Shown here piece after piece: positions 3,071 to 41,969 of a stretch of DNA of 64,000 nt; positions within the stretch are counted from its first letter, which is position 1; every line of letters starts with the position of its first letter. A model generated the notes under the pieces. The model made no database searches and was not told the DNA's origin. It saw nothing but the letters and a program-made list of their open reading frames with translations. A program made the position numbers and the translations under genes. This DNA is from a candidate division WOR-3 bacterium (lineage in GTDB: Bacteria > Hydrothermota > 32-111). The stretch covers positions 992,001 through 1,056,000 of the forward strand of contig JBDRZU010000001.1 of the NCBI GenBank assembly GCA_039804105.1, in the 5' to 3' direction.

Positions 3071-3926
3071 ATTTGTACTCTATCTTTGCTTTTTCTCTTA
3101 ACTGCTGTGTATACGCTTGTATAAATGATTTTGATTTTTCAGAATATAAAAGATTTGTAAGCATTCCCTTGATCGTATTTTCATCAAGATTTGATGGTTT
3201 AAAATCAACAAGTTTAACTATATTGTATGTTCCATTTATTTCAGCAAAAGGTGTTGATATTTCCCCTTTATTTTTCAATGAGAAGGCAACAGAATCAATG
3301 TTGGCAAATCCTATACTTGTCAACTGTTTGAAGGTAAACCATGTATCGATTGCTCCGCCTTTTTGTCCCGTCTGTTTATCAAGCGATACCTCTTTTGCAA
3401 CAGTTTCAAAACTCTTTTTACCTGACTTTATCAAATTGTATATGGAATCAGCATACCCTTTATCAGCTGGAAGAACAATGATTGCTATTTTTATATTTTT
3501 ATCAAAATTTGGTTTGTTCAACTGGAAATATGCTGTTATTTCATCCTGTGTTGGTGCAGGCATTTCTTTAATTTTCTTTTCCATATATTTGCTTGCAAGA
3601 GTTATAATTTCTTGTAATTTAAGTTGATTCATCAAATTTGTATCGTTTTCGATTCCACTTTTCAACGCCTCATGGTATATTAGAATGTTGTCGATCAACT
3701 CATCAACTACCAGTTTTTTGTTTTCTTCTGGAACCGGTTGTCCCTGTGTTACAATGTTGACCAACCCTTCAGAAATGTTTATACCATTAACTGTTGCAAG
3801 AACTTTACCTGAAGTTTTTAAACTAACTTTTTCTTCCTGTGTGTTTTTCAAAACTATGTATCCAAGAAGGATAACTACGATTAATGAAAGCACAAGGATT
3901 ATGATAACTTTTGTGTCTTTTTTCAT
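3060..3926 (-). CDS. Membrane-anchored parvulin-type PPIase (PrsA/PpiC-like)
   Basis: N-terminal TM helix, LATVNG, FETVAKEVSLD...GG. Start moved to ATG 3926 behind AAGGAG. Confidence 0.75.
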   Translation of the reverse strand: MKKDTKVIIILVLSLIVVILLGYIVLKNTQEEKVSLKTSGKVLATVNGINISEGLVNIVTQGQPVPEENKKLVVDELIDNILIYHEALKSGIENDTNLMNQLKLQEIITLASKYMEKKIKEMPAPTQDEITAYFQLNKPNFDKNIKIAIIVLPADKGYADSIYNLIKSGKKSFETVAKEVSLDKQTGQKGGAIDTWFTFKQLTSIGFANIDSVAFSLKNKGEISTPFAEINGTYNIVKLVDFKPSNLDENTIKGMLTNLLYSEKSKSFIQAYTQQLREKAKIEYKFEK

Positions 3927-3930
3927 TTTT

Positions 3931-5604
3931 TTACTCCTTATTTTCACTGATTGTTTGGTTAACTATTTTGTCAAAAAGATTTCTGTTAACAAATATCTTG
4001 ATATTTTTCTTTTCTTTTTCTATCTGATCATAATATATACTATCAGTATAAAATTTCAGATATTCATTTTTCAACTGTCTTGATTTGAATTCGTCGGTTA
4101 AATCTTTTGGTCTTGGTGGAATCACATCAACAACATATATTATATTATATCCCTTTGAATTCTGGAAAATATCGGATATCTTTCCTTTTCCTGTTTCGAC
4201 TGCTTTTTGGTAATATCCTGTTGTATCGGTTTCATCGAAAATAAAATAATCAGGTTTTGCAAACTCCTTAGGTTTTATCGTAGAATACAATCTTGCAAAA
4301 CGTTGAAAATCTTTTTTCTTGATCTTCAAAGAATCTTTAACCATATTCACTTTTTGGAGATCATTGTTTGAAACAATGTAAACATACGCCTTTCCTTTTT
4401 CCATAAATCTATCGATTTTTTCTTTATAAAATTTGACCAGAAGTGAATCATCTGTTGGGATCGAATTCATTATATCTTTTCGAACTCTCTGATCACAGAT
4501 AATAGCCATTTTAACATCGGTTTCCTTAGCAAATTCTTTTGAAAGGTTTCCTCCCATCCTTCTTCCTTTTTCATAAACTGTCATAAAGAATAGCATCCTA
4601 TCTATGAAGTTCTTCATAACCTCTGGTTGAGAGAATGGAACTTTTCCAAAACCACCTTTCTGTGCTTCTCTGATAACATCATCTATAGTCCATGCACCGA
4701 ATATTGAAGTTGCAAGAACAAGTTTTCTTTCATCTTTTAATGAATCGAGTATTACATTGCCAACAGAATCATATTTGAATGCCTGGAAAAGTTTGTTTAT
4801 GTTTTCTAGATTAACATTTATCTTTCCCATTTTTCTCAACTTTTCTTCTGACTTTACAGCAACTTCATTAAGTTTTTTTCTTTTTAATGTATTCTCAACA
4901 GCTTTTATCTCACTCTGATATTTTGATGTATCCTTTTTTTCTCTTTTTAAGACCCTTATGATATGATATCCAAAAGGAGATTTGACAGGTTTTCCAATAA
5001 CATTTATAGGTTGTTTAAAACATGCATCCTCAAACGGTTTCACCATTACTCCACCTGAAAATTCTCTAAGCATTCCCTCATTGTTTTTGTTGTTTGTATC
5101 TAAAGAATATAAGGCTGCAAGTTCTCCAAACCTTTCGGGTTGTTTTTTCAGTATTTCATAGAGTGAATCTGCAAGTTTTTTTTCTTCAACAAGTATATGC
5201 TGAGCCCATATTGTCGTTTTATTTCTGATATATGTGTCCCATAATTCCTTTTCACTTATCTTAACTTTTTTTGTAACCTCATTGTCATATACTAGCCCTA
5301 TCAACCTGCTGTTTTCTGACTGAACTTTTTGGGTAATCAGATCTTCTGTAAGAAGATTATTCTTTTCCATATAGTTATAAACTATCATCTGGTTTATCAG
5401 GTTGTTCAAAACATCCTCTGCCTTTTTCAAATTTTCTTCTTTGGTAAGGTTTGGCATCGGTACATACATCTTTTTAAAAGTGCTTTCAAACAAAACTTTA
5501 TTATCAACTTTTGCAATCACATTATCTTTTTTTGAACAACCAGAAAAATTAAAGAGAATAAAAAATAGCGTTGTCAGAACTATAACATTTTTTGAAACTT
5601 TCAT
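3931..5604 (-). CDS. Lipoprotein parvulin-type PPIase
   Basis: Lipobox FSGC; AQHILV, FGELAALYSLD, MVKPFEDA, SPFGYHII. Confidence 0.8.
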   Translation of the reverse strand: MKVSKNVIVLTTLFFILFNFSGCSKKDNVIAKVDNKVLFESTFKKMYVPMPNLTKEENLKKAEDVLNNLINQMIVYNYMEKNNLLTEDLITQKVQSENSRLIGLVYDNEVTKKVKISEKELWDTYIRNKTTIWAQHILVEEKKLADSLYEILKKQPERFGELAALYSLDTNNKNNEGMLREFSGGVMVKPFEDACFKQPINVIGKPVKSPFGYHIIRVLKREKKDTSKYQSEIKAVENTLKRKKLNEVAVKSEEKLRKMGKINVNLENINKLFQAFKYDSVGNVILDSLKDERKLVLATSIFGAWTIDDVIREAQKGGFGKVPFSQPEVMKNFIDRMLFFMTVYEKGRRMGGNLSKEFAKETDVKMAIICDQRVRKDIMNSIPTDDSLLVKFYKEKIDRFMEKGKAYVYIVSNNDLQKVNMVKDSLKIKKKDFQRFARLYSTIKPKEFAKPDYFIFDETDTTGYYQKAVETGKGKISDIFQNSKGYNIIYVVDVIPPRPKDLTDEFKSRQLKNEYLKFYTDSIYYDQIEKEKKNIKIFVNRNLFDKIVNQTISENKE

Positions 5605-5637
5605 CAAACCTCCTTACAAGATGATTTTTAATTATAA

Positions 5638-12949: not shown

Positions 12950-13171
12950 TTATTTAACTTCTTCTTTCTGCTCTTCACATGTATGAACCTGAATTGCAAA
13001 ATCAGGACATCTGAGTTCGCACATATGGCAACCGATGCAATCATCAGGTCTTGCAGCAACTACTTTTCTGTCCTCTCCAATCTCAAGGACCTTTTTTGGA
13101 CAGTAGTGAACACAAAGAGAACATCCTTTACAAAGATTTTTAAAAATTTTATGTGTATATCTTTTTTTCAT
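12950..13171 (-). CDS. korD: 2x[4Fe-4S] ferredoxin, oxidoreductase delta subunit
   Basis: CKGCSLCVHYCP and CIGCHMCELRCPDFAI. Confidence 0.88.
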   Translation of the reverse strand: MKKRYTHKIFKNLCKGCSLCVHYCPKKVLEIGEDRKVVAARPDDCIGCHMCELRCPDFAIQVHTCEEQKEEVK

Positions 13172-13228: not shown

Positions 13229-15520
13229 TTAGTTGTCTTTATCTTTAAAAGTGTTGGGCAAAATGAAAAGAAAGAGTGAAAATAATGAAAGCTTTATATA
13301 TGATTCTGGAAGCATCGGAATGCCATTTGTGAACGCTAAAAACCATAAAAATATAAGAAGATTTAGCCATGCTAATAATATAAAAATGCTTTTCACAAAA
13401 GATGGAAGAAAAATGATATTTTTTAAAATTGAAACAACAACAAAAAATATTATTAAAAATATCAGAGATTGAATTATGTTAAACCTTAAAAAGTAAAGAG
13501 GATTCTGTATTTTTTCATATTTAAGTATCAAAAAATTCAACCTATCAAAAAAATCTCCCTTTTCATTTATTATCATATTGTAAGTTAAATTATCAAAACT
13601 TTCTTTTTTTCCTGTTATAAAATAATAGCCATATTTTACTTTTTCGTTTTTTATACTACCAAGTAATTTTATCTCTTTTTCTTTTTCCTGCTTCATATTC
13701 AATCTATCATATATACCTGCAAAAGTTGTTGTTCCCCAAAAATTGACTCTAAAATTTGTGTCCTTAACACTTTTTTGATAAAGCAATATTGAAGAAAAAA
13801 TTATTATAAAAAGATAAAAAAGCCCAGGAATTATTTTGAAAAAGTTTAAAATTTTCCTATTTTTTCTTTGTTTTGAAATAATCTGTCCTACTCTTTTCGG
13901 ATCATCCCACAAGTTTTCAACTTCATCACTTGATTTCAGATTTATTGATTGTTCAAAACCTAAAATTTTCTTTAAAATTTTAACAGATTTCAAATCGATC
14001 TCATTTTTTTCAAGTATTGATATTATTTTTCTGTTTTCAATACTGGTGAGTTGATCCTTTTCTGAATATCTTTCAAGAAGAATTCTCAAACAGGTAATTT
14101 TATCCTTTTCTGACAATCCTGAACTATAAACAAAAATAGTTATATTTCTTATCACTTTTACTTCATTATTCGAACTCTTTGTTAAATCTATATATTCATC
14201 TATAAAACTTATAAATTCTCCGTTCAGCATTAAATCGATTATTTTGTTCTCAGCGGCAGTAGATTTTCGTGATAGATATTTGAAAAGAAAACTTTTTAAA
14301 TTGTTAACAGTTATTTTTTTCCCAAAAATAACAAAAGGCAAACTTTTATTGTATTGATAGATCAACCTCATTATTTTTAAATCTTCATTTATACCCGAAT
14401 CTTTTAAACTTTGAATGAATTTTAAATCTTTTTTCTGTTTATTGAAATCACAAACTGATGAAAATTCACCTCGACCGAGATTTTTAATCGCCAAATTCCA
14501 GTTTTCTTCATTTTCAGCAATCCCATAAGAAAGATCTTTTAAAGAATTATAAAATTTCCCATTTAACTCAAAAGGTTTTGTTATACTTTCAGTTTCATCT
14601 TCCTCAACAACTTTTTCTATTTTTCCGATTATCCAATTATTGACCTGCTGAAAACCCCATCTTTTTTCGTAATCTCTAAGAAGTAATCCTTTTATCAGGA
14701 TTCTTAAATTTTGATCTATTTTTTCAGGTATCTCTATATTTTTTGTTGTGATATTCACAAAAACTACTTGTTGCGTAGCACCTTTAAAAGGTAACTCACC
14801 AAAAACCAACTCATAAAGAGTCATTCCCAATGTCCAATAATCCGATTCTTTTCTCATAGCACCAGATAACATTTCTGGAGACATATAACTTGTTGTTCCT
14901 CTGACCTGTGTGAACCTCATAGTTTGTTCATCATCAAGAAGGTTTGAAATTCCAAAATCAGAAAATATTACAGATTTAATATTGTCATTTCTTAACAATA
15001 GATTTGATGGTTTCAGATCAAGATAGATTATTCCTTCATCATGTAAAATTTTTAACCCTTTATTAACCTTTTTAACAAATTCTTTAGTTTCATTGAGCGA
15101 TAATTTTCTTTTTTTAACAAAATCTTTTAATGTCCCCGCTTGAGCGTACTCCATTACTTCATAATATCTTTCATTAACATCATCATATTCGAACTCATAA
15201 ATTTGAACAAAAAAATCTTTATTATTTTTGCTTAGGTTCATTATCTTTTTTATAACTTCACTCTTGGGTACTATGCCCTTTCTATAAAATTTTAGAAAAT
15301 ATTTTTCATTGTTCTTTGAAACAAGATATGTATCCGATTCTCCTCCTTGAGCAGGGAATTCCTTTTCAATGATATAATCTTTAATCTTTGTAGGTCTGAC
15401 AGAATTTTCTTGAACATTTTCTTTTCTTGACACTGAATAATTTTTTACTATTGTTTTTTCATCTTGTAAAATTTCATTATTTTCAAAATTTTTCCTTATA
15501 GTTTTATCATTATCAAACAT
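13229..15520 (-). CDS. Hanks-type Ser/Thr protein kinase with C-terminal TM helices
   Basis: QGGESDTY, FLKFY, YLDLKPSN, DFG, GTTSYMSPE, SDYWTLG; hydrophobic segments near the C-terminus. Confidence 0.9.
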   Translation of the reverse strand: MFDNDKTIRKNFENNEILQDEKTIVKNYSVSRKENVQENSVRPTKIKDYIIEKEFPAQGGESDTYLVSKNNEKYFLKFYRKGIVPKSEVIKKIMNLSKNNKDFFVQIYEFEYDDVNERYYEVMEYAQAGTLKDFVKKRKLSLNETKEFVKKVNKGLKILHDEGIIYLDLKPSNLLLRNDNIKSVIFSDFGISNLLDDEQTMRFTQVRGTTSYMSPEMLSGAMRKESDYWTLGMTLYELVFGELPFKGATQQVVFVNITTKNIEIPEKIDQNLRILIKGLLLRDYEKRWGFQQVNNWIIGKIEKVVEEDETESITKPFELNGKFYNSLKDLSYGIAENEENWNLAIKNLGRGEFSSVCDFNKQKKDLKFIQSLKDSGINEDLKIMRLIYQYNKSLPFVIFGKKITVNNLKSFLFKYLSRKSTAAENKIIDLMLNGEFISFIDEYIDLTKSSNNEVKVIRNITIFVYSSGLSEKDKITCLRILLERYSEKDQLTSIENRKIISILEKNEIDLKSVKILKKILGFEQSINLKSSDEVENLWDDPKRVGQIISKQRKNRKILNFFKIIPGLFYLFIIIFSSILLYQKSVKDTNFRVNFWGTTTFAGIYDRLNMKQEKEKEIKLLGSIKNEKVKYGYYFITGKKESFDNLTYNMIINEKGDFFDRLNFLILKYEKIQNPLYFLRFNIIQSLIFLIIFFVVVSILKNIIFLPSFVKSIFILLAWLNLLIFLWFLAFTNGIPMLPESYIKLSLFSLFLFILPNTFKDKDN

Positions 15521-15523
15521 CTA

Positions 15524-15964
15524 TTACCCCTCCTTTTCCACCTCTATTAAAAGGTCCCCGGCAAGTGAGATTTTATCTCCTTCTTTAATTTTATATTGTT
15601 TGTATTCTTCACATTTTTTTTCGTTTAAAAATGTTCCATTTGAACTTCCAAGATCCTCGATGAACCATTCGTTTCCTTTTTTCTCAACTCTAATATGTTC
15701 TCGTGATACTGTTTTTATATTTGAACAATCAATCTTTACCCCTTTTCGACCAATGATATCTCCACTTTCAATCTCAAATTTTTTGTTCATACAACTAAAA
15801 ATAATCGTTGTAATATTTTCATTTTCTTCTTTAACTACTTTATTATTCAAATCGTTTTCATCAACAGGTGAAATATCCGCAATATTATTATTACATTTTG
15901 AACAATTCATTTGAGTTATTTCATTCTTTTCATTACAAACTGGACAGATTTTTATCAATCCCAT
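15524..15964 (-). CDS. Zinc-ribbon + FHA domain protein
   Basis: CPVC...CSKC; IGR, VSREH, DLGSSNGT. Confidence 0.9.
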   Translation of the reverse strand: MGLIKICPVCNEKNEITQMNCSKCNNNIADISPVDENDLNNKVVKEENENITTIIFSCMNKKFEIESGDIIGRKGVKIDCSNIKTVSREHIRVEKKGNEWFIEDLGSSNGTFLNEKKCEEYKQYKIKEGDKISLAGDLLIEVEKEG

Positions 15965-15972
15965 AAAAACCT

Positions 15973-16527
15973 CTATTTTGGTATTCCTGAAATTATAAAC
16001 TCGTTTTCAAACTTAAATTTCTGAAAAATATTGTTTTTTCTTGTTCTTCTATATTTTTCATATTTTTCCCTTATCATATTTTTCTTGCTCAAAATTATCA
16101 TTTTTTGATTGTTCGATCCTCTCCAGATAAGGTTCGATTTTTTATCTTTTATGTAATTTCCATCGATTAAAACTGAAATATATTTCAAACAAGTTTTAAA
16201 ATTATTCCTTATATTCTCAAATCTATAACCGGTGTAAACTAAAATGTCATCATATTCTTGTTTTATTTCTTTTAATAGGATCAAAAGAGATGAATACTGT
16301 AAAAAAGGTTCTCCACCCGATATTGTTATTCCTTCACAACCAGATTTTTTAGATACAATCATTTTTTTTATCAGATCCTCAACCAAAATTTCAAAGCCAC
16401 CTTTTTTATCCCATGTGTGTTGTGACATACATCCCTTACATCTTATATCACATCCCTGTGTCCATAGAACAAACCTTTTCCCGGGTCCAAGATTGTAAAT
16501 TGGAAAATAAAAAGCACTTATTCTCAT
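15973..16527 (-). CDS. Radical SAM protein, NrdG-like activase fold
   Basis: WTQGCDIRCKGC (CxxxCxxC), TISGGEPF, YTGY, RGSNNQ. ATGA overlap with upstream stop supports start 16527. Confidence 0.85.
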   Translation of the reverse strand: MRISAFYFPIYNLGPGKRFVLWTQGCDIRCKGCMSQHTWDKKGGFEILVEDLIKKMIVSKKSGCEGITISGGEPFLQYSSLLILLKEIKQEYDDILVYTGYRFENIRNNFKTCLKYISVLIDGNYIKDKKSNLIWRGSNNQKMIILSKKNMIREKYEKYRRTRKNNIFQKFKFENEFIISGIPK

Positions 16528-18347
16528 CTTTTTATTAACATTTTCCATCTGTTATCTTCCTTGACTATTTTTTCTATAATTAAATTTTCTCCTTCCTTTG
16601 ACTCTATTTCAAACAGAGTTCTTGAAAGTGTATTTATGAAAACATCTTCTATAACATTTCCTATTCCCCTTCCTCCCATCGATAAATCTTTTGTCGCTTC
16701 AGAATACACAGTTCCTAATGCTTCAGATGTTAAATTTACTGTTATCTTTTTTGTATCCAGAAGTTTGTCTTTTACTCTATTTATCATCTTATTCACGATA
16801 TTCAATGCAACATCTTTCCTGATAAAATCGAACACAACAATATTTTCACCAATTCTGTTTAAAATTTCTGCTCTATTTATTTTATACTTGAAAAAGTCAT
16901 TTATAGCATCTTTAATTCTTTTTTCTATTTCAGAATATTCCATCTCCGGACTTATTCTTTGTATTCTTGTTCCATCATCTTTTCTTTCATAGACACCAAG
17001 ATTACTTGTAAAAATTATCAAAGATTCAGAAAAATAGGCAAGTTCTCCCCTTCCAGAAGTTAATCGACCATCATCTAGTATTTGTAAAAATATATCGAGT
17101 ATTTTACTATGTGCCTTTTCTATCTCATCAAAAAGTATCACGGAAAATGGTTTTGCTTTTATCGAATTAATAAGTTCTCCCCCTGTTTCATATCCAACAT
17201 AACCGGGAGGAGCACCTATCAACCTCTGGTCCGAGTGTTCTTTTGAAAATTCACTCATATCAAATCTTATATAACTTGTCTCATTCCCAAAAATCAATTT
17301 TGTAATTGACTTTGCAAGTTCTGTCTTCCCAACTCCTGTTGGTCCTGCAAAAAACAAAACACCTTTTGGCCTCTGTGAAATAGAGGAATATTGTGAACCT
17401 GATAGATTGAACACTGATCTTTTGATTATATCTGCTGCTTTAGTCACGGCTTTTTCCTGTCCAAAAACATCTTTTTTCAAAATATCTTCACTCTTTTTTA
17501 TAACTTCGAGGTTTAATTTCGACCATGGGTTCTCTTCAATGCCAAGTTTATATCTTCTGATCGCTTCTCCTATTTCAAAAAAAGAAAGGTTTTCTTTTTT
17601 TGCGATCGATACAATCGATGCTATTTCCTGTCCTTGTAATTCTGTTGTTTGACCTATAAAGATTTCCTTAATCTCATTTACTTTTTGATTGTTTTCTTCA
17701 AACCCTTTTATATTTTTTGATAGTAACTCAACGATAATCTTTCTTGTTTCATAATCTGGCTTTGGGATATTTAACGATTTTATTCGATAATTCCCAATGT
17801 TAAACCAGGCAGGTAGATCATTATCTTTTTCAAGAATCCATAATACAAGGTTATATTGAGCCAAATTTTTCTCTTTGATAAACACTGGCTGACATACAAG
17901 CGATAATCTAAAAAGTTTATAATAAAATTCATCTATCTCATTTCTTGAAAGTTCACCATATCTTGATGAGAAACTCAGTTGTACTATTGATAAAATTTTT
18001 TTATTGTTTACTATTTTTTCTATAATCACTGCAGAATCCTTTAATCCACAATCAAGATAATTCTCTTTATTTATACTGTACCCTGTTATCTCTTTTGCAT
18101 AATCCTCTTTTCCTGAAACTAATTTAAAACCATATTTTGGTTCAAATGAAAATACGAGATCATACCCTTCCTCTTTTAAAACATAGTTCAAATAATCTTT
18201 TAGACCAAGAGTTGTCGGAATCACTGTATTCTGACTGTTCATATAATATGGATAAATATCATAAATGTTACCGCATAGTAAAAATTGAGATTTTATCGAA
18301 CAAAACCTTTTTAACTCTTTTGCCCATTTTGGATAGTAACCTGCCAT
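16524..18347 (-). CDS. AAA+ ATPase with ClpB-D2-like C-terminal module
   Basis: GPTGVGKT, RFDMSEF, LIGAPPGYVGY, LFDEIEKAH, DDGRLT. N-terminal half lacks a Walker A. Start 18347 behind GGAGG. Confidence 0.88.
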   Translation of the reverse strand: MAGYYPKWAKELKRFCSIKSQFLLCGNIYDIYPYYMNSQNTVIPTTLGLKDYLNYVLKEEGYDLVFSFEPKYGFKLVSGKEDYAKEITGYSINKENYLDCGLKDSAVIIEKIVNNKKILSIVQLSFSSRYGELSRNEIDEFYYKLFRLSLVCQPVFIKEKNLAQYNLVLWILEKDNDLPAWFNIGNYRIKSLNIPKPDYETRKIIVELLSKNIKGFEENNQKVNEIKEIFIGQTTELQGQEIASIVSIAKKENLSFFEIGEAIRRYKLGIEENPWSKLNLEVIKKSEDILKKDVFGQEKAVTKAADIIKRSVFNLSGSQYSSISQRPKGVLFFAGPTGVGKTELAKSITKLIFGNETSYIRFDMSEFSKEHSDQRLIGAPPGYVGYETGGELINSIKAKPFSVILFDEIEKAHSKILDIFLQILDDGRLTSGRGELAYFSESLIIFTSNLGVYERKDDGTRIQRISPEMEYSEIEKRIKDAINDFFKYKINRAEILNRIGENIVVFDFIRKDVALNIVNKMINRVKDKLLDTKKITVNLTSEALGTVYSEATKDLSMGGRGIGNVIEDVFINTLSRTLFEIESKEGENLIIEKIVKEDNRWKMLIKR

Positions 18348-18413
18348 TTTTATTTCCTCCCCTTGTACTTTTTTCAATTAAAATAAACTTAAATTTTTCA
18401 TTAAAAGTAAATT

Positions 18414-19781
18414 TTATTCAAAAGAAGATTTTATATTTTTCTTTTCCTCTTGTCTTTTTTCTTTTAGATTTTCTTCTATTAAAACTTCATATTCTATGTT
18501 ATCAAATTCTGGTTCAACTACTATTAGGTCTTCAAACATTATTTCTTCCAAACTTATTTCTTTTAATATGTTTTTGTACAGATTGCACCATTTTCTTGCA
18601 TTATTTTCATCTTCTTTTTTTTCAAAGTCACTGACAGAATCCTTTCTTTTTGTACTTCTTTTTACATACTTTGTAATTATCTTTCCATCACTATAAGATA
18701 CTTTCACAACATATTCACCTTTTTTTATCTCTACATTTTCACCTTCAACAAGTTTTTCAAAAAGTTTTTCATCAAGTATAATCCATCCTTCCTCTTTTAC
18801 TTTTTTTTCAAATAAAGGCAATTTTTCTTTTAACTTGTTTTTTCTTTCCTCTTCATATAAAAATTGTTCAATTTCATCTTCCAACTTTTCATACTGGTTA
18901 GGATCAATTAAATCCTTTCGCATCAAATTCCCTAAATTTCTCATTAAAATCTGGTATTTTTGATTTTTATTTTCAATATTCATAACATTATTTCGATATT
19001 CCGATAATTTTTCTTTCAAAATTTCGTTCATCACAGATATTTTTTTTATGTTTTCAAAGTTGTAAACAAGTTGTGTATATAATGTATCAACTCTTGTTTT
19101 ATTGTCTGACTTCAAAATCTCTTCAAGAATTTTTTGATTTTCATTTTCATCTGATCCAGTAAAATTCTTTATTTTTTCATATATTAATTTTGCTTTTTCC
19201 TTTTTTTGTTGTAATTGAAGATTTTCATTTTTTGCATAAGAAATGTTTGAAATAACTTTTTCTTCTTTCAAATTCGAACCTTTCATTGCCAGATAGTTTT
19301 GATACTTATTCACTATATCATCATTTTTGATTTTTAGTTTCTCAAGTTTTTGTTTTTGTATATAAATATCTTTTTCATTTTTAATTTCATCAAGTTCTTT
19401 TTTTATTACATTTACCTCATTAAAAAAAATATTTCCAATATCACCAAAATTCAAATCACTTTCAATCTTTGTTATATTTGCATTGTTATTTAAAATAATT
19501 TCATTTTCCTCATTTTCAATTTTTTTTATTTCAGTAAACAACTTATGAAAATTTCTCCTCATATTTTTTTCAACCTGTTCCATAACGATTGAACTTCTTT
19601 CATATCTAATTTCACTGTTTATTTTTTTAGCAAGATCATTTATCTTAACTTGAATTTCATTTTTTCTTTTATCAGAAATTTTTGATATTTTTCTCTCACA
19701 TTTCATCAAGTTGTTAGTTAAAATGTTCATGATCCTTTTCTTCTCGTTCAAATAAATTCTTGTTTCTACATAACTACTCAT
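18414..19781 (-). CDS. Coiled-coil-rich hypothetical protein
   Basis: 455 aa, E/K-rich; overlaps the PP2C stop. Confidence 0.7.
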   Translation of the reverse strand: MSSYVETRIYLNEKKRIMNILTNNLMKCERKISKISDKRKNEIQVKINDLAKKINSEIRYERSSIVMEQVEKNMRRNFHKLFTEIKKIENEENEIILNNNANITKIESDLNFGDIGNIFFNEVNVIKKELDEIKNEKDIYIQKQKLEKLKIKNDDIVNKYQNYLAMKGSNLKEEKVISNISYAKNENLQLQQKKEKAKLIYEKIKNFTGSDENENQKILEEILKSDNKTRVDTLYTQLVYNFENIKKISVMNEILKEKLSEYRNNVMNIENKNQKYQILMRNLGNLMRKDLIDPNQYEKLEDEIEQFLYEEERKNKLKEKLPLFEKKVKEEGWIILDEKLFEKLVEGENVEIKKGEYVVKVSYSDGKIITKYVKRSTKRKDSVSDFEKKEDENNARKWCNLYKNILKEISLEEIMFEDLIVVEPEFDNIEYEVLIEENLKEKRQEEKKNIKSSFE

Positions 19782-20538
19782 CTAAACACCTCACTATAAT
19801 AAAGGTTATATTATCTTTTCCTCCATTTTCGAGTGCTTTTTCAAGTAAAAATTTTCCTGTTTCTTCAAGATTTTCTTTTTGAAATCCCTCTTCCATTGTA
19901 TCGATTTCTACACTATCCCAGAGTCCATCGGAACATATTAAAAATGTATCTCCCTTTTCAAAACTTTTTTCAACTATATTCATTTGTGGTATATTTCCCG
20001 CTCCGTCCCCTGAAATTGATGAAGTGATAACATTATGGGGAACATTTTCTATCTTGTCAGATATTCCATTATCCTTCATCATTTCAAGAACAGAATGATC
20101 TTTTGATAACCTTTCAAGATATTTACCTGAAAGTTTATAAACTCTTGAATCACCAACATTAAAAACAACGATCTTCTCTTTGTCAAATGTAATTCCTGCA
20201 ACAGTTGTTCCAAGTCCCGATAATTTTTCATCATTTTGGGAAATATTGTCAAGTTCGATTTTTGATGATTTTATAAATTCTTCAATTTTTTTATCATTTT
20301 TTTCTATGATATAACCTCTTAAATGTTCAAGAACGATTTTACTTGCTATTTCTCCTCCCTTATTCCCTCCAATCCCATCAGTCACTGAAAAAATCGTTTT
20401 ACTTTTCTCAAAACAATGCGATGTTACAACCTCCATATTTGTTCTATTAAATATCATATCATCAACAAGTAAAGAATCTTCATTGTTTTCTCTTTTTAAT
20501 CCAATATTGGTAACAAATACCACCTTAAATTTTGTCAT
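19774..20538 (-). CDS. PP2C/PPM Ser/Thr protein phosphatase
   Basis: RENNED, TDGIGG, GTT, NVGDSR, CSDGLWD, GGKDNIT. Confidence 0.92.
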   Translation of the reverse strand: MTKFKVVFVTNIGLKRENNEDSLLVDDMIFNRTNMEVVTSHCFEKSKTIFSVTDGIGGNKGGEIASKIVLEHLRGYIIEKNDKKIEEFIKSSKIELDNISQNDEKLSGLGTTVAGITFDKEKIVVFNVGDSRVYKLSGKYLERLSKDHSVLEMMKDNGISDKIENVPHNVITSSISGDGAGNIPQMNIVEKSFEKGDTFLICSDGLWDSVEIDTMEEGFQKENLEETGKFLLEKALENGGKDNITFIIVRCLDE

Positions 20539-21514
20539 ATTCCTTCTCCCTGAATCTTTTGATATTCTCTTTTACCTTCTCTTCAGAAAAGTTCGCATAA
20601 CAATAAACACAAAGATGCATACATGTGTTATATTCTCCAACATCCTTACTAATAATACAACCACAATCAGCCCTCTGTCCTTTATCCTTCAATTTTTTGT
20701 TTTCAACATAGTCGGAAAAAAGATTTTCATCATACCCCAAAAATTCCATCAACTTTTTGTCATCCTTGAACAATCTAACCATAAATTCATCATCAACACA
20801 TTTATTCTTTTTTATTCCATAAACTGACAGATCAATGTTTTCAGCACATGTTGCAACTTCAAAATTATATTTTCCCCCAATCTCAGAAACATTCTTTGCT
20901 ATTTCAATTTTTTTATCATCATCAAATTCAATATATTTTATATTTTTTTTGCTTAAATTATTTTTTACCTTTGAGTAAATCTGAATATCAGCATAACTGA
21001 AAACAAGTTTTTCAGTATATCCTTTCAATTCTTTAGCAATATTTTCAATTTTTTTAGTCAATTTACCTATACTAAGTTGATCAGTCAGAATCAACGGATC
21101 AAATCTCCATATCACTTTCTCTTTTCCAATTTTTTCAGACAATTTTTTAAATATCTTAACTCTCTCTCTAAGATTTATCACATTTGGCTCAAACCCTTCT
21201 TCTTCATAATCGTTCAAAGTGAACTGAAAATAGTATCCAATGTTTCTTTCATCAAGCAGTTTTAAGTATGGGATTATCGGTTTCGGATTTTTTGTCCAGA
21301 AAACTATAACTCTCGTCTCATCAAAAAAGACATACGACTCTTTGTTGTTGAAAGGGTTCACCCATTTTATATAGCCCTTCTCAAAGCATCTAAAAAACCA
21401 CTCAGAATGAAACGCAGGTATATCGGTTGCTCTACTTGCTGAAATTATCACAGGGCAAACACCTTCCTTTTTTTGTCCATCAATAATCTTTTCAATTTTT
21501 TTCCATTTATACAT
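20525..21514 (-). CDS. DUF1848 family protein (Cys-rich C-terminus, putative Fe-S)
   Basis: IISASRATDIPAFHSEWF, VFWTKNP, WRFDP, CGC...CMHLCVYCYAN. Confidence 0.85.
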   Translation of the reverse strand: MYKWKKIEKIIDGQKKEGVCPVIISASRATDIPAFHSEWFFRCFEKGYIKWVNPFNNKESYVFFDETRVIVFWTKNPKPIIPYLKLLDERNIGYYFQFTLNDYEEEGFEPNVINLRERVKIFKKLSEKIGKEKVIWRFDPLILTDQLSIGKLTKKIENIAKELKGYTEKLVFSYADIQIYSKVKNNLSKKNIKYIEFDDDKKIEIAKNVSEIGGKYNFEVATCAENIDLSVYGIKKNKCVDDEFMVRLFKDDKKLMEFLGYDENLFSDYVENKKLKDKGQRADCGCIISKDVGEYNTCMHLCVYCYANFSEEKVKENIKRFREKEYDKI

Positions 21515-22549
21515 ATAAACTCCAAAAATATCCTTCTTTTGTATTTTTTGTTAGTTCATTACATTTTTCAATCTTACCATTTTTACAAATGTTAAAACCT
21601 GAAGATGTTTCAGCAGCAAGATATTTTGAATTATCAGAAACTTTTTTATTTATCAATTTCAAAGCAATTTCTTTTTCAAGGATTATTTTATAATTTGTTT
21701 TAAAACTATCATAAATCATTGATCCAAACCCAAAATCTCTTATTATTTGAAAATTTATCTGTGTGAAGCAATCTCCATTATTGTTAACGCAATTGTGATG
21801 ATTTAAATTGCATTGAACAGGTAGTAAAGTTGTATAATTTTTATTGTTTCTGTAAAATTTTTTTAATTCCTGATTCATAATTATCGGGAAAAATCTCCCA
21901 TCATTGTTTTTATCGCAAACATCTGTTAAAAATATTACACCATCTTTGTTTAAGTATTTTACCATTTCTTCTGTAAAAATTCTATAATTTTCTTCTTTAT
22001 TTCCTGTTCTGTAAAATTCATTGATCATATTGAAACATAAAATGATATCAAATTTTTCTTTTAGTGATTCCATCAAATTTTTCAATCTGTTAGAAAATTT
22101 TTCTTCTGATGTAAAATCATAAAGTAGATAAGTTGAATTTGTGCTTGTATTATTTTTTATATCAAAATAATATTTATACTTAAAAAAGTATTTTTTCATT
22201 ATAGGGTTTGAATCAATAAGATAAAACTTAAAATTTCATAATTGAATTTGTTATTTATAAATGCTTTAATCATTCCAAAAATTTCAGGTGCTACACCAGA
22301 CCCAATATCGAGTATTTTTAATTCTTTTTTATTTTTAATAATTTCAGTATAGTCAGTATTTTCTATCAAATTATTGAACACAAGATATGAAACAACTTTG
22401 CTTCTCACAAAATATGTTCCAAGATATTCTAAAACTGTCTCCTCATCAGCATTTTTAAAAGTGATTATCCCACCACCCCTTTGTTTGTATTTTCCTCCAA
22501 TTGTCTCAAGAAACCTAAAAACTTCATTACTTATTCTTATGTTTATCAT
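21507..22549 (-). pseudogene. Frameshifted SAM-dependent methyltransferase-like gene (two ORFs)
   Basis: Upstream ORF has ILDIGSG (motif I). The downstream frame is open 12 codons before its ATG (NFKFYLIDSNPI-M), giving a motif-II-like LID, then FDIILC. One-base shift near 22228-22237. Confidence 0.6.
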
Positions 22550-22998: not shown

Positions 22999-23553
22999 TT
23001 AGTAAGGTAAATCTTCTTCATCAACATCATAGAATTCATCAAAATCATAAATAAAATAATTCTTTATTCTTTCTCCAATATCTTTTTTTATTTCATTTTC
23101 AAGTACCTTCAAATTTGTTGAAATATCATTTAGTAGATTTTCAATTTCAATTCTAAATATAGGGAAATATCTAATTTCATAAAGTTCGCCAATCATTATA
23201 TTTTTCTTTCTCATCTCAACTTCAAAAATATCAGCTAATATTGGAAAGAAAGTTTTGTTGCATATTACAGTGTAAATAAAATCCGATTTAATAATTGCTG
23301 GAGCATTTGCAATTTCTTTATTATATAAAATAACCGAAGCAATATCTCTTGGCTCAGATAAAAAATTTGTTAAAACAAATTTTAATATATCTTTGTTTTT
23401 ATCATTGCAAAAAAGATATTCAAACAATTGATCAAGATTCATAATGTTTTTTATATCATAATTTTTACCAAAAAGATAAAATGTGAAATCAGCATATTTC
23501 AAGAGGTAATTGCAGATTGTTTCAACAGTGATCTGTTTTCTTCCGTTTAACAT
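22999..23553 (-). CDS. Hypothetical protein, paralog of 23684-24247
   Basis: AAGGAG RBS; aligns by eye with the neighbouring ORF. Confidence 0.65.
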   Translation of the reverse strand: MLNGRKQITVETICNYLLKYADFTFYLFGKNYDIKNIMNLDQLFEYLFCNDKNKDILKFVLTNFLSEPRDIASVILYNKEIANAPAIIKSDFIYTVICNKTFFPILADIFEVEMRKKNIMIGELYEIRYFPIFRIEIENLLNDISTNLKVLENEIKKDIGERIKNYFIYDFDEFYDVDEEDLPY

Positions 23554-23683: not shown

Positions 23684-24247
23684 CTAAACAAAACAAAATG
23701 GATCTATAAAATCATCGTAAATGAAAGATTTATAAGTACCTTTAATAAAAAAAGATCTATTTTTTAATTCCTCTATAAATATTGTTGTATAAATGTTATA
23801 AATATCTTTAAAATTTTTCTCTATATCTTTCACAGCATTTTTAAAATCTGGTGTTGTATTACCAGTTTTTATTATATCTATTAAAATAGTCTCTTTTATG
23901 TTATAACGATTAAGAATTCTACCGAGTTCAAAAGAACAATGTACCATTTCATTTATCGGCCTTATAAAATAAAGAAACTTTGCAACCTGTTTTAAATTTT
24001 CAGTATCTATTTTACTAAAAAAATAATAAGGAATACCCGTACGAACAATATGAATATGAAAATCTATTAAAAATTTATATACTTCTCTATTTTCTTCATT
24101 GCTAAAAATACTTCTAAGTATTTCATCTGCACTTCTTTCATCATCTGAAAATTTATGATTATATAATTTACAATAGAATTCCATATACTCAATAAGAAAC
24201 TTTATTATCCCATCCATTGTTACTTGATTATTTTTTTTCTTTTCCAT
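23684..24247 (-). CDS. Hypothetical protein, paralog of 22999-23553
   Basis: GGAGG RBS; QVTMDGIIKFLIEYMEF vs QITVETICNYLLKYADF. Confidence 0.65.
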   Translation of the reverse strand: MEKKKNNQVTMDGIIKFLIEYMEFYCKLYNHKFSDDERSADEILRSIFSNEENREVYKFLIDFHIHIVRTGIPYYFFSKIDTENLKQVAKFLYFIRPINEMVHCSFELGRILNRYNIKETILIDIIKTGNTTPDFKNAVKDIEKNFKDIYNIYTTIFIEELKNRSFFIKGTYKSFIYDDFIDPFCFV

Positions 24248-24920: not shown

Positions 24921-26048
24921 TTATTCGTTTCCATATTCTCTATTTAGATAATCTGCTGCCCAATTTAAATTTACACTATTATTATCAGATATTTCGATTC
25001 CAAATCTTCCTCCAAAATCATCTCCTTTTTTATATATTCCAATTAATATTTTCTTATCAGTATCAACTTTGAAATAGATTCCTTTTATTGCTGCCTGTCC
25101 ATAATAGGGCATCGAATAGCAGGTTTTGATCCATTTATTTTTCTTCCAAATCTTATAGACAAAATCTTCAAGACCTTTTGGATAATGATGTTCACTAAAT
25201 GTTGGTTCTTTTCTTTCATCATCATTCAAACTAATTAAATTTGGAGCTTTAGGATACCTAATTCTAAAAGATTCAAGATATATAGTTCCAAGTGTATTTA
25301 ATGAATACAAACGTCCTTCTTTTGTATCGATTGTATCAATAAAGACTTTCAATTTTTCATCCAATACAATTTCATTAATATTATCAATAGTATCTTCTCT
25401 TTCTAAGAGCGACAACAGATCAGCATTTTTCCCTAAAATATCATAGTCCAACGAAATAGGTAATGGGGGAAAATCTATAATCTCATTAAATTTTTCATGT
25501 TTATAAAATACTGGAATATTTAATGTTTGTCCTAAAATTACTGCAACTGCTATTTGTGCCTTATATCCTCCAGTTGCATCTATTGCAATATATTCAGATC
25601 CATATTTTTTAATCATTTTACCAAGTTTCTTAACAAGATTTCTTAAACCTTCTTTTTTAAATTTTTTAGGATCTTTATCTTGAAGCAATTCAATTATTTC
25701 AACTTCAACATTTTTAAGATTTAAATCTTTTCTATTTTCATAGTATAGTTGTAGAAATTTGCCTGTATTTTTGCCATCTTCAGTATCAGAGACAAAAAAT
25801 ACAATATTTTCTAATGTTAACCATCTTTTCTTTCTTATTTCTTCAATTGTATTTATCTCTGCACCACAAAATCTTTCTGAAGGATTTATGGATTGAAATA
25901 GTTCAGATAATTTGTCCCATTGCTTTTTTTCAAAAGAATCTTTAATTTCTTTCCAATATTCTGGTTTATTTTCAAAATTTTCATTTAATTTTTTCAAATT
26001 TCCTTCAAATAAACTTGCTCCAACAGTACACAATAAAGTCGTTTTCAT
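24921..26048 (-). CDS. CARF (APE2256/CARF7-type) effector with wHTH-like linker and C-terminal domain; Cami1-like layout
   Basis: LCTVGAS, GAEINT, SDTEDG, DATGGYKA, YKHEKF. Start 26048 behind AGAGGA; lies just past the array 1 trailer. Confidence 0.8.
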   Translation of the reverse strand: MKTTLLCTVGASLFEGNLKKLNENFENKPEYWKEIKDSFEKKQWDKLSELFQSINPSERFCGAEINTIEEIRKKRWLTLENIVFFVSDTEDGKNTGKFLQLYYENRKDLNLKNVEVEIIELLQDKDPKKFKKEGLRNLVKKLGKMIKKYGSEYIAIDATGGYKAQIAVAVILGQTLNIPVFYKHEKFNEIIDFPPLPISLDYDILGKNADLLSLLEREDTIDNINEIVLDEKLKVFIDTIDTKEGRLYSLNTLGTIYLESFRIRYPKAPNLISLNDDERKEPTFSEHHYPKGLEDFVYKIWKKNKWIKTCYSMPYYGQAAIKGIYFKVDTDKKILIGIYKKGDDFGGRFGIEISDNNSVNLNWAADYLNREYGNE

Positions 26049-26154
26049 ATTTTTTCCTCTTTTAATTTTTTTAATATTAAATTCTATCAATTTTTAAAAA
26101 TATCATCCAACTTTTAGATTATCCAGTTTCAAAAATATTATATAAACACCAATG

Positions 26155-29006
26155 ACCAAAAATGGTGCGATTAAGACCCAGATTAAGAGGCTGTTCCATA
26201 AGATTTCGCCACAGGGCATCTGGTTTCCATACCAAAAATGGTGCGATTAAGACAGATACCATCAAACATCAAATGGAAAGGGAACATTAGCAGTAGTTTC
26301 CATACCAAAAATGGTGCGATTAAGACTAGTGGAAAATAAAGAAGTAGATGTTCAGAAATGACTTATTATGTTTCCATACCAAAAATGGTGCGATTAAGAC
26401 CTTGACAAGAAAGTGAGTTTTAAAACTTTAAATTTCGAAGTGTTTCCATACCAAAAATGGTGCGATTAAGACGTATAGAGTAATTGGCTTAGATAGGAAA
26501 GTATCTTTTATAGTTTCCATACCAAAAATGGTGCGATTAAGACTTAAAATTGAAACTAAAAATTTTACATATTATTACGAAATGTTTCCATACCAAAAAT
26601 GGTGCGATTAAGACGAAAAAATGAAAAAAGAGGTTTTAAAAGAAAAACTTTTTAATGGTTTCCATACCAAAAATGGTGCGATTAAGACTCCAAAAAATGT
26701 ATCAGCATACATATTGCTGTCAGAAATGTTTCCATACCAAAAATGGTGCGATTAAGACGTTACCAGAGAACAAATCATTAACTTTCTTATGCCAGCTCGT
26801 TTCCATACCAAAAATGGTGCGATTAAGACCGAAGTGGGGATTGTATTTTTGACTGCTATTTCTTAACAAGGTTTCCATACCAAAAATGGTGCGATTAAGA
26901 CTGGAAGACATTGACAAATGGACTGTTGCACACGAATTGGCAAGGTTTCCATACCAAAAATGGTGCGATTAAGACAGAAGAAGACATAGAACAAATAGAA
27001 ATGATTGAACAACGTTTCCATACCAAAAATGGTGCGATTAAGACATTATTTTCTTCAAATTCTGATGGTTTTAAATTGAAAAGAGTTTCCATACCAAAAA
27101 TGGTGCGATTAAGACGGAGGTAAAAATGATACTTGACATTTCAAGAAATTGTGATGAGTTTCCATACCAAAAATGGTGCGATTAAGACCATCTTGGTATA
27201 TCTGATGGTAGTGTTGAAGTATGTGGCGAACCGTTTCCATACCAAAAATGGTGCGATTAAGACGGAGAAAGAGCCGAATATTGCATGGCAAAATCTCTTA
27301 ACCAAATAGGTTTCCATACCAAAAATGGTGCGATTAAGACGTGAGGAGGAAAAAATGAGACCAATGCCAAGAAAACTATATTATAGGTTTCCATACCAAA
27401 AATGGTGCGATTAAGACCTTGGAACATATGGTAAAAAGTTGGCAATAACTAGTATAAGTTTCCATACCAAAAATGGTGCGATTAAGACTGGATACGCATA
27501 TCCTCTAGTTGCAGATAATGACATACCAGTTTCCATACCAAAAATGGTGCGATTAAGACGGTATTATCTGCCCCCGTCATTTCTGTCTAATGGTAAAGTT
27601 TCCATACCAAAAATGGTGCGATTAAGACGTACAGTACATGTTGGTCTACATGTGATATACATGTGTAGGTTTCCATACCAAAAATGGTGCGATTAAGACC
27701 AAGAAGCACAGATATTAGTAAACGAGAACGTGCCAGATAAGTTTCCATACCAAAAATGGTGCGATTAAGACCAGTGGAGGAAAAAAGGATGAATAAAATA
27801 GAAAACATTATAAGGTTTCCATACCAAAAATGGTGCGATTAAGACACATAGAAAGGTATATGTTGTATATGTGACAAGATTTTCTGTGTTTCCATACCAA
27901 AAATGGTGCGATTAAGACATAATGTCAATTATGATTTTCCAGAAGCGCCATATGTTGGAAATGTTTCCATACCAAAAATGGTGCGATTAAGACCAAATAA
28001 AAGAAATAGGTTGGATTTTATTCCAGATAAAGTAGTTTCCATACCAAAAATGGTGCGATTAAGACCTATAGAAGCAAAAAATGAAAAGAAAGCAGAAATG
28101 ATAGCAAGTTTCCATACCAAAAATGGTGCGATTAAGACCTGATATAATATACCACATTGAATGGTATTTTTTCTCTTAGTAGTTTCCATACCAAAAATGG
28201 TGCGATTAAGACTCATCAATATATGATTCTGGCATCGAATACTGGGTTCCTGGTTTCCATACCAAAAATGGTGCGATTAAGACTATGGTTTATAAAAATA
28301 AAAAAATGGTTAATAAAGGAGGAAAAGTTTCCATACCAAAAATGGTGCGATTAAGACAATAAAAGAAATAGGTTGGATTTTATTCCAGATAAAGTATAAG
28401 TTTCCATACCAAAAATGGTGCGATTAAGACAGGAAAAGATGAATAAAATAGAAAACATTATAAGAGTTATTAATGGTTTCCATACCAAAAATGGTGCGAT
28501 TAAGACTGTAAAGAAAATAAAATTGGTATAGATATTTTACAAAAAAGTTTCCATACCAAAAATGGTGCGATTAAGACATTGTTTGAAAGAGTATCTCCTA
28601 TTAAACTTACATCATCATGTTTCCATACCAAAAATGGTGCGATTAAGACCAAAAAATTATAAAACCAGAAAAATTACCTGTTATAGCAGTTTCCATACCA
28701 AAAATGGTGCGATTAAGACTTGAAGCAGAACTAGATATATCATTGACAATATCATCAAGTTTCCATACCAAAAATGGTGCGATTAAGACTTTCATTAGAA
28801 TAGAACGTATCCAACATACTATCATTCCGTTTCCATACCAAAAATGGTGCGATTAAGACGACATCCCAGAATACATAAGACCAGCAGTGGATGCTGCTAT
28901 AGGTTTCCATACCAAAAATGGTGCGATTAAGACAAAAACAATGAAAAATTGGCATCATATGCTGCAACTATTATTGTTTCCATACCAAAAATGGTGCGAT
29001 TAAGAC
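26155..29006 (-). CRISPR. CRISPR array 1: 39 perfect repeats + 1 degenerate trailer repeat, 39 spacers of 38-46 nt
   Basis: 31-bp repeat, minus strand GTCTTAATCGCACCATTTTTGGTATGGAAAC (ACCA/TGGT stem, then 8-nt tag ATGGAAAC). Degenerate repeat at left and leader at right indicate minus-strand transcription. Confidence 0.98.
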
Positions 29007-29107
29007 AGGATCATAAATTTAATCTTATTATATACTTATTTTAAAATTTGTCAAGATTTTTCTGTCGATCGGTGGTCGTGCAAAAAACCCGGGGGATCGA
29101 CAGAAAA
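29007..29107 (-). promoter_or_regulatory. CRISPR leader 1 with sigma70 promoter and 13-bp inverted repeat
   Basis: Minus-strand TTGACA (29049-29054)-N16-TATAAT (29027-29032); arms TTTTCTGTCGATC 29058-29070 and GATCGACAGAAAA 29095-29107; 100/101 identical to 46894-46994. Confidence 0.9.
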
Positions 29108-29158
29108 CTAAGTTGCTATAATTAAATTTAATAATATTAAATAAAAATTTAAAAAAAA

Positions 29159-29428
29159 TTATAGAAAATTATCCATTTCTTCGGAAGTTATCCCCACTCC
29201 ATGCAATTCTCTGTAAAGCCATCTTTTGTCTCTCATATAATAAATTATTAAACCATCTTCATTTTGATCACAGTTTTGAGAAAAATAATGTTTTATCTCT
29301 CTGATTTCCGACTCTGTCAATTCACCTTCAAAAACAGATCTCTGAACCCATTTTAAATATTTTTTTAAAAACTTATGAAATTTGTTAACTCTTTTTTCAC
29401 CAACATCATAAACAATAATCACATACAT
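29159..29428 (-). CDS. cas2: Cas2
   Basis: YVIIVYDV, WVQRSVFEGELT. Confidence 0.95.
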   Translation of the reverse strand: MYVIIVYDVGEKRVNKFHKFLKKYLKWVQRSVFEGELTESEIREIKHYFSQNCDQNEDGLIIYYMRDKRWLYRELHGVGITSEEMDNFL

Positions 29429-41869: not shown

Positions 41870-41969
41870 CTTCACTCCTTTTTTTCTATCATACCAAAAC
41901 GTAAGCAAGCGCGTAATAAGCGATTTCCCAATCAACACCTTCACTCCTTTTTTTCTATCATACCAAAAC
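41867..41969. repeat. 34-bp exact direct repeat around a 35-nt insert
   Basis: CACCTTCACTCCTTTTTTTCTATCATACCAAAAC at 41867-41900 and 41936-41969. Confidence 0.95.

Follow-up and report, generated by a model that had tools for sequence, protein, structure and literature searches.

A six-gene kinase, FHA and PP2C cassette with a Clp-like ATPase and an activase-like radical SAM enzyme: a candidate conflict system in a WOR-3 bacterium

Which process is controlled when a Ser/Thr kinase, an FHA protein and a PP2C phosphatase are encoded in one block with an AAA+ ATPase, a radical S-adenosylmethionine (rSAM) enzyme and a helical protein? Such a block lies in a stretch of 64,000 nucleotides (nt; hereafter the window) of a candidate division WOR-3 bacterium (contig JBDRZU010000001.1, positions 992,001 to 1,056,000), a region with a low G+C content of ~0.23-0.35. 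The first-pass annotation, made from the letters alone, had read seven minus-strand genes as a phospho-switched defence system with a writer, a reader and an eraser, located inside a CRISPR island. The coordinates of all seven open reading frames (ORFs) match and each domain call is backed by Pfam, the trio of writer, reader and eraser by Pkinase, FHA and PP2C_2. The CRISPR setting was confirmed as well: a CARF7-type gene (24921-26090, PADLOC) and an array (26296-29168) lie close by, and cas1, cas4 and type III genes reach ~42.7 kb of the window. One of the seven genes, encoding a DUF1848 protein, turned out to be a neighbour. The other six, for PP2C, the helical protein (CC), AAA+, rSAM, FHA and the kinase, occupy 13229-20538 (7.3 kb) and probably form a self-contained cassette of a widespread, undescribed conflict system, most likely directed against phages or plasmids.

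The six genes are closely packed. PP2C and CC overlap by 8 nt and AAA+ and rSAM by 25 nt, the remaining junctions being gaps of 36 nt (CC/AAA+), 8 nt (rSAM/FHA) and 3 nt (FHA/kinase); the preceding DUF1848 gene overlaps PP2C by 14 nt. A word-based search with the N-terminal domain of the AAA+ protein (N-domain) found 65 full-length relatives, with WOR-3, Magnetoovum, Campylobacterales and Calescibacterium among the organism names, and all matches together cover about seven phyla. Gene order was compared in 87 loci, each with this diagnostic N-domain: 80 from metagenomes and 7 from a collection of species genomes, where a scan with ClpB-core patterns had yielded 80 loci, 7 of them with true full-length relatives. 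They were searched with twelve window proteins and, iteratively, with CC. AAA+ is present in all 87 loci, rSAM in 64, CC and FHA in 54 each, PP2C in 48 and the kinase in 47, many of the loci lying on short contigs. Where at least 650 nt follow AAA+, the next gene is rSAM in 55 of 69 loci, and where there is further room, FHA stands directly after rSAM in 39 of 47; four more loci have FHA and rSAM adjacent in another order (L084 and L150 downstream, L130 and L148 upstream). Kinase, PP2C and CC are on the same strand throughout, in an order that varies between loci. The AAA+-rSAM-FHA order is hence kept across phyla, as the defence reading had presupposed, and the six genes form a discrete unit that recurs in numerous phyla of bacteria.

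Two loci with fewer of these genes have neighbours of their own. In L004 (8810-14209) a reduced version, CC and AAA+, precedes genes for RtcB and a PrfH-like release factor; L142 (6215-11872) has AAA+ without any other cassette gene, next to cas1 and a gene resembling AEP-TOTE primases.

Related genomes define the edges of the cassette. Of 271 genomes of the phylum four contain it, this one counted, and it is found in one of four other species of the genus. In the congener G004 the locus is fully syntenic, DUF1848 included; a second genus is represented by G010, where the order PP2C-CC-AAA+-rSAM-FHA-kinase is likewise kept, with neither DUF1848 nor the methyltransferase-like gene that lies next to it in the window. 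DUF1848 was not matched in any of the 87 related loci. It is present in each of the four other species of the genus, the AAA+ N-domain in just one of them, and in the cassette-free congeners G001-G003 it lies at most 400 nt from a fumarase gene. With no occurrence in the 87 loci, its absence from the G010 copy and its place beside fumarase in three cassette-free congeners, DUF1848 is ruled out as a cassette gene and is a resident neighbour instead; this part of the earlier proposal has to be given up.

In an alignment with G002, homology stops in the last DUF1848 codons, where PP2C starts, and picks up again at the stop codon of the kinase gene. Immediately past that gene a promoter-like site (TTGACT-16-TAAAAT, 13224-13197) is conserved in G002. 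A promoter and terminator scan gave 82 sites where 69.5 +/- 6.7 were expected and is uninformative as a whole; this is the sole scan site that we use, because it is aligned with G002. Judged by these alignments, 13229-20538 is a clean presence/absence unit. Apart from AT-rich noise, neither direct nor inverted repeats were found at the cassette ends, and the block in the window contains no integrase; without terminal repeats or a recombinase, both an insertion and a deletion would fit. A 73-residue ORF at 12950-13171 (minus strand), which the promoter-like site precedes and which lies upstream of the fumarase genes, has two Cys clusters that look ferredoxin-like by eye and marks the lower cassette edge.

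What varies most between related cassettes is the kinase. The kinase of the window, with its DLKPSN, DFG and SPE motifs intact (by eye), is composed of the kinase domain, a cassette-specific post-kinase domain that extends to residue ~460-490 and a C-terminal remainder. The latter has about four hydrophobic segments and is predicted to be a membrane sensor. The post-kinase domain of ~150 residues is conserved in 28 kinases, helicase-fused ones included. The C-termini of related kinases are hypervariable: TPR, Sel1, RCC1, PQQ/NHL propellers, ankyrin, FGE-sulfatase, FtsK-gamma and decapeptide repeats are all found. A DUF4011-SF1 helicase-MTES_1575 nuclease (REase) forms one polypeptide with the cassette kinase in Pseudomonas, Bradyrhizobium and Rhizobium. 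The helicase-nuclease fusion matches candidate PDC-S37 (4.8e-148), Hhe (8.9e-65) and MkoA (2.3e-51) of PADLOC. This branch has kept the AAA+, rSAM and CC genes, whereas FHA and PP2C are missing. On an Aristaeella plasmid of 44 kb the helicase is a separate gene that adjoins a full cassette.

The putative switch has two other members. The FHA motifs GR, SRxH and NGT are intact in the window protein (by eye) and conserved over 49 family members, 39 of which also have the CxxC...CxxC pair, and the protein is predicted to read phosphothreonine. The metal-binding Asp motifs of the PP2C protein are intact (by eye); it scores 159.7 bits with the NCBIfam Stp1/IreP-type model, below the cut-off of 230, and is the predicted eraser of the switch.

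The cassette is also found on plasmids (nine records), where RefSeq names its products 'AAA family ATPase', '4Fe-4S single cluster domain-containing protein' and 'hypothetical protein'. Among 30 loci with flanks scanned over 4 kb, the raw count of those with one or more genes for defence, toxin-antitoxin systems or mobile elements is 15. The flank genes include JetA, GmrSD, RhuM, a PtuA-like gene, DarTG, HKD-Snf2, Cmr1/2 and MzaC/D with Vsr, and further Zeta, ParE, PIN, TerB, integrases and transposases. Genes of such kinds also lie inside cassettes: in the metagenomic locus L085 (12883-16324) AAA+ and rSAM are separated by an inserted GmrSD-type restriction gene and a RhuM gene, and of two further loci L159 has MNT/HepT and HicB inside it and L160 MNT. 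The G010 copy is ~6 kb away from a type I restriction R-subunit gene.

The AAA+ protein has a Walker A motif (GPTGVGKT), a Walker B motif (DEIEKA) and a pore loop (GYVGY). Its N-terminal 290 residues are without Walker A, GNIYD standing at the expected P-loop place (all by eye). In agreement with the earlier description of a single active ClpB-like module, it is the D2-like module that is intact. The first 290 residues match no Pfam family, a PDB sequence search with an N-domain profile gave nothing at E <= 1, and the N-domain has no match among 50,697 phage-collection records. An AlphaFold2 model (pLDDT 80.8) was aligned by Foldseek over its full length with the two-ring proteins ClpC1, ClpB and ClpA (629-701 columns, E 6.2e-30 to 1e-26, TM 0.40-0.53 as normalised by query length). 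Two stacked AAA modules, the mark of Hsp100/Clp proteins, are thus seen in the model, but not a functional D1. Since the N-terminal part is without a P-loop and yet the whole model aligns with two-ring Clp proteins, the protein is Clp/Hsp100-like, with an inactive D1 and an active D2. Its score with the ClpB equivalog of NCBIfam is 250.3 bits, far from the cut-off of 1232.1, and no IGF/IGL-type ClpP loop was seen by eye. Translation probably begins ten codons further in, at an ATG near 18347; an identical database protein and the AAA+ protein of the congener have 607 residues each.

For the rSAM enzyme the best NCBIfam model is NrdG (116.3 bits, cut-off 126.1), while PflA gives 73.9 bits against a cut-off of 231.75. 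The closest solved sequence is pyruvate formate-lyase (PFL) activase (1.8e-13), QueE following at 2.1e-6. CxxxCxxC and GGEP are intact in the window enzyme (by eye); LGPGxR, CxxxCxxC, SGGEP and GSxNQ are kept in nearly all of 37 sequences, and an N-terminal GPGxR motif is typical of activases of glycyl-radical enzymes (GREs). A C-terminal extension of ~40 residues, which ends in GIP, is conserved and family-specific. By these matches and motifs the enzyme is assigned to the small GRE-activase type (NrdG/PflA-like). Its assignment as a viperin is rejected, the match with prokaryotic viperin (pVip) of PADLOC being 2.2e-7 only and the score with viperin_w_prok of NCBIfam 30.3 against 180.

A cognate GRE is absent from the window, as had been noted before. 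The only NrdD of the genome is encoded on another contig, with its own activase directly downstream, which is 23% identical to the cassette rSAM. Because NrdD carries its own, different activase, the cassette rSAM is an extra, dedicated paralogue. We looked by eye for a glycyl-radical site of the RVxG[YFW] type and found no conserved one in the CC alignment, CC being the one protein examined systematically. The near-invariant G332 of CC, which is followed by an aromatic residue, was considered as such a site and is disfavoured: in 3 of the 35 sequences Asn takes its place, while the loci of these still carry rSAM, and it is therefore unlikely to be the rSAM target. The activase-type motifs suggest that the substrate is perhaps a protein backbone, and the unfoldase encoded beside rSAM suggests that this substrate perhaps needs unfolding to reach the active site.

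The CC protein has no match in Pfam, PADLOC or NCBIfam. In its AlphaFold2 model (mean pLDDT 80.6) residues 1-330 are helical and are followed by a small alpha/beta domain (332-435). With full-length queries, Foldseek found nothing in the PDB at E <= 1e-3 and VIA wide yielded nothing beyond generic helical bundles (Z <= 11.2); the best score of the C-terminal part in the ESM Atlas was 0.87, all matches being unnamed clusters. The N-terminus (MSS/MSG) is conserved, as are the motifs LGY, TRxVR and KD....WC of the C-terminal domain, with an invariant Trp and a near-invariant Cys. Pseudomonas and Bradyrhizobium are among the 54 loci in which the iterative search detected CC. A profile of 35 members, searched against 1.84 billion representatives (one per 50%-identity cluster), found 1823, 1210 and 421 of them at E <= 1e-3, 1e-10 and 1e-30, respectively, of which the first tier may contain coiled-coil noise. 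As far as profiles and models go, CC is a genuine family without known relatives; its role would be that of a scaffold or a substrate.

Upstream of the cassette, DUF1848 is paired with the methyltransferase-like gene. In the window the latter is split into ORFs of 116 and 230 residues through a 1-nt deletion near 22235; it is a single ORF of 347 residues in G004, and contigs of two public runs carry an extra base at 22235. Either this strain differs here or the assembly is in error. G002 has a homologue of 360 residues (40% identity) upstream of DUF1848 and G001 an ORF of 351 residues at the same place; in G004 and G002 the pair is independent of the cassette. In the available part of one report, DUF1848 is found next to methylase-fused UG25 reverse transcriptases (PMC9226505), so the two genes may make up a small separate module. 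Further upstream on the minus strand, two ORFs of 184 (22999-23553) and 187 residues (23684-24247) have weakly similar N-termini (BLASTP 3e-5); both are 96-97% identical in G004 and one has a chance-level PD-(D/E)XK_2 match. In run X2 one contig corresponds to 19777-21092 and then runs on into 29 letters of CRISPR repeat (GTTTCCATACC...), which could be a strain with an array abutting DUF1848 or a chimera. Among the run contigs none spans the whole stretch, and joints with sides of 20-25 letters at 90% likeness were disregarded.

Table 1. Positions of the cassette genes and of the two upstream neighbours in the window, with the best-supported domain assignments
Product	Position	Strand	Basis and remarks
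Ser/Thr kinase	13229-15520	-	Pfam Pkinase 3.2e-41
Zn-ribbon FHA adaptor	15524-15964	-	FHA 5.1e-16, weak N-terminal zinc-ribbon match
Radical SAM enzyme	15973-16548	-	Fer4_12 1e-35, Radical_SAM 2.8e-9
AAA+ protein	16524-18377	-	AAA_2 2.2e-45, ClpB_D2-small 1.8e-7
CC protein, 455 residues	18414-19781	-	Pfam: no family
PP2C phosphatase, gene 1 of the cassette	19774-20538	-	PP2C_2 4.9e-12
DUF1848 protein, Cys-rich, C-terminal CxxxCxxC	20525-21514	-	PF08902 1.9e-93; neighbour, outside the cassette
Methyltransferase-like gene, paired with DUF1848	21507-22549	-	two ORFs in the window

Elsewhere in the window, the type III locus encodes a metallo-beta-lactamase/beta-CASP RNase domain fused to CARF (Cas_APE2256; 38097-40472, minus strand) and a Csm6-HEPN-like protein without CARF (40469-41944). 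At 1805-5607 (minus strand) three genes for SurA/PpiC-type peptidyl-prolyl isomerases are arranged in tandem, downstream of the gene for the transcription-repair coupling factor.

The closest functional analogy is the threonine-phosphorylation pathway of the T6SS (type VI secretion system). This pathway consists of the kinase PpkA, the PP2C phosphatase PppA, Fha1 and the AAA+ protein ClpV, and it is not defence in the phage sense. In the cassette, too, the genes for a sensor-bearing Hanks kinase, a PP2C, an FHA and a ClpB-family AAA+ protein lie together, and the NCBIfam models for ClpV and the T6SS FHA protein give sub-threshold matches. However, the AAA+ protein reaches 199.2 bits with ClpV (TssH, TIGR03345), where the cut-off is 884.95, and there are no T6SS structural genes among the 51 window ORFs (Pfam) or in the flanks of 30 loci. 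It differs further in its degenerate D1, an N-domain family of its own, and rSAM and a helical protein as partners. Seen from the rSAM side, the enzyme resembles the NrdG/PflA activases in being small and of the Fer4_12 type, with GPGxR, CxxxCxxC, GGEP and GSxNQ, but it stays under their cut-offs, has a C-terminal extension and is encoded next to an AAA+ protein, with no GRE beside it.

Known conflict systems share single parts with the cassette. The TerY-P triad combines a vWA TerY-like protein with a kinase and a PP2C. A kinase and PP2C pair in a conflict-type neighbourhood is also found here; as had been remarked before, a vWA/TerY gene is not, no vWA family being matched by Pfam among the window ORFs scanned, and among the related loci VIT-vWA is near L158 only. 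Mokosh type I MkoA, PDC-S37 and Hhe correspond to the SF1 helicase-nuclease to which the kinase is fused in the Pseudomonadota branch, whereas the window kinase is without helicase or nuclease and those systems are without AAA+, rSAM and CC. Dodola (DolA/DolB) and PDC-M37 have a ClpB-like AAA+ in common with the cassette (PADLOC: DolB 1.7e-19, PDC-M37B 2.9e-29), but the matches are confined to the ATPase core (residues 275-462 for DolB and 341-461 for PDC-M37B), and DolA and M37A have no match among the 12 window proteins scanned with PADLOC. The best PADLOC match of the window kinase is mad6 (1.9e-46), extending into the post-kinase region; PD-T4-6 and MkoA are other, generic matches. In the excerpt available, MADS is composed of mad1-mad8 of Pseudomonas aeruginosa (PMC13662399). 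Unlike MADS, the cassette has no OLD-like ATPase-nuclease modules, its kinase scores 101.5 bits with the MAD6 equivalog of NCBIfam (cut-off 460), and the other mad matches are at chance level (mad2 4.2e-4, mad8 1.2e-3). For FtsH-type vWA-MoxR ternary conflict systems, part of Kaur et al. 2020 (PMC7159879) proposes an rSAM effector that modifies a separately encoded polypeptide. These systems are AAA+-centred and contain rSAM as well; as described in that part, however, they use MoxR/FtsH AAA+ proteins and vWA and lack both a Hanks kinase/FHA/PP2C switch and a Clp-type AAA+.

In line with the first-pass annotation, no system model of PADLOC matches the cassette. Targeted full-text literature searches gave no description of the six-gene set, paper supplements, which were outside their scope, being a place where an unnamed candidate could be listed. 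The gene set is likewise not described in the available portions of PMC7159879, 10.64898/2026.10.19.760177, PMC10853773, PMC13662399 and 10.1101/2025.01.08.631966.

We favour a role in conflict because of the hypervariable kinase C-termini, the patchy distribution, the plasmid copies and the defence, toxin-antitoxin or mobile genes in about half of the flanks examined. Of the uncharacterised conflict or stress system proposed earlier, the missing catalogue name, the conserved order and the fit of context and variable sensors with conflict have stood, while DUF1848 has dropped out as a component, and the remodelling of the coiled-coil protein by AAA+ would be one conceivable step. Several points weigh against this role. 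No system model of PADLOC or NCBIfam fits the cassette and no NCBIfam model is matched above its cut-off, and in the window-type cassette no effector (nuclease, NADase or pore former) can be recognised. Kinase/FHA/PP2C modules also serve T6SS firing, division and sporulation, and repeat-type extracytoplasmic sensor domains are common in environmental signalling as well. The island context is suggestive only, since a background rate is missing, and the other half of the flanks consists of housekeeping genes or genes of unknown function. Near-duplicates (L144/L147, L142/L143, L137/L138 and L116/L118) cause the locus counts to overstate independence, and in L004, L007, L093, L101 and L142 AAA+ is found alone or with CC only.

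These points leave some room for a signalling or stress module outside defence, in which the kinase, as a receptor, responds to a cue from the envelope or the environment and, via FHA and PP2C, controls a Clp-like remodeller and an rSAM enzyme, the two of which mature, repair or dismantle a helical-protein assembly. The hydrophobic C-terminal segments of the window kinase, with a loop between them, the housekeeping half of the flanks, the lack of a known effector domain in the window-type cassette and the combination of kinase, PP2C and FHA with a ClpB-family AAA+, which mirrors the T6SS pathway that controls a machine served by ClpV, would all be in keeping with it. We nevertheless regard such a module as possible but rather unlikely, as the cassette is very patchy even within one genus, forms a clean presence/absence unit, has plasmid-borne copies and toxin-antitoxin or restriction genes within or beside it, and includes a whole branch whose kinase is fused to a defence-type helicase-nuclease, with no structural genes of a machine conserved alongside. 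Still less probable is a pathway of protein or peptide modification, with rSAM modifying CC or a small peptide, AAA+ presenting or exporting the product and the kinase module regulating expression or activity. In peptide maturation, rSAM enzymes do occur paired with an ATPase and with a substrate that belongs to no known family, and the conserved N-terminus of CC, together with the invariant Trp and near-invariant Cys of its C-terminal domain, would suit a substrate. The rSAM is, however, of the small GRE-activase and not of the SPASM/RiPP type, the loci lack a conserved precursor-like small ORF, protease or transporter, and CC is ~450 residues long and mostly helical. That the genes came together by chance in a variable region, with rSAM as a spare NrdG, is hardly credible: the region is an accessory-gene island and rSAM falls just below the NrdG cut-off, but synteny contradicts chance, the genes recurring in 87 loci of many phyla with a fixed AAA+-rSAM-FHA order, and NrdD already has an adjacent activase.

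For the conflict system that we prefer, we infer the direction of signalling, the substrates of AAA+ and rSAM and the defence phenotype as follows. The kinase would be the sensor, its invariant catalytic domain and post-kinase domain being combined with a lineage-variable C-terminus that is probably membrane-embedded here. Upon a cue it would phosphorylate itself or a partner on threonine. The Zn-ribbon FHA protein would read this mark and couple it to an output module of AAA+ and rSAM, which we group as a translationally coupled pair, given the overlap of the two genes and their nearly constant adjacency. AAA+ might then thread a polypeptide, for which CC, with its conserved N-terminus, and a protein of the invader are candidates, and the activase-like rSAM might carry out radical chemistry on the exposed backbone. 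PP2C would hold the system off and reset it. Protein-radical chemistry as the immune output, with a phospho-licensed unfoldase feeding a host or invader polypeptide to the activase-like enzyme, which would take a hydrogen from the backbone so that the target is activated, cross-linked or cleaved, is a speculative and by itself unlikely proposal. If it were true, this would be the first rSAM 'activase' that partners an AAA+ protein instead of a GRE, and a new effector principle in prokaryotic immunity.

The core of an unfoldase and an activase-like enzyme has no described counterpart. If the cassette serves defence, a large family has been missed by current catalogues, and it would offer a tractable case of bacterial immune signalling by a receptor kinase, FHA and PP2C with swappable sensor domains. 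If it does not, an orphan activase family that travels with an AAA+ protein raises the question of what a GRE-type activase does without a glycyl-radical enzyme.

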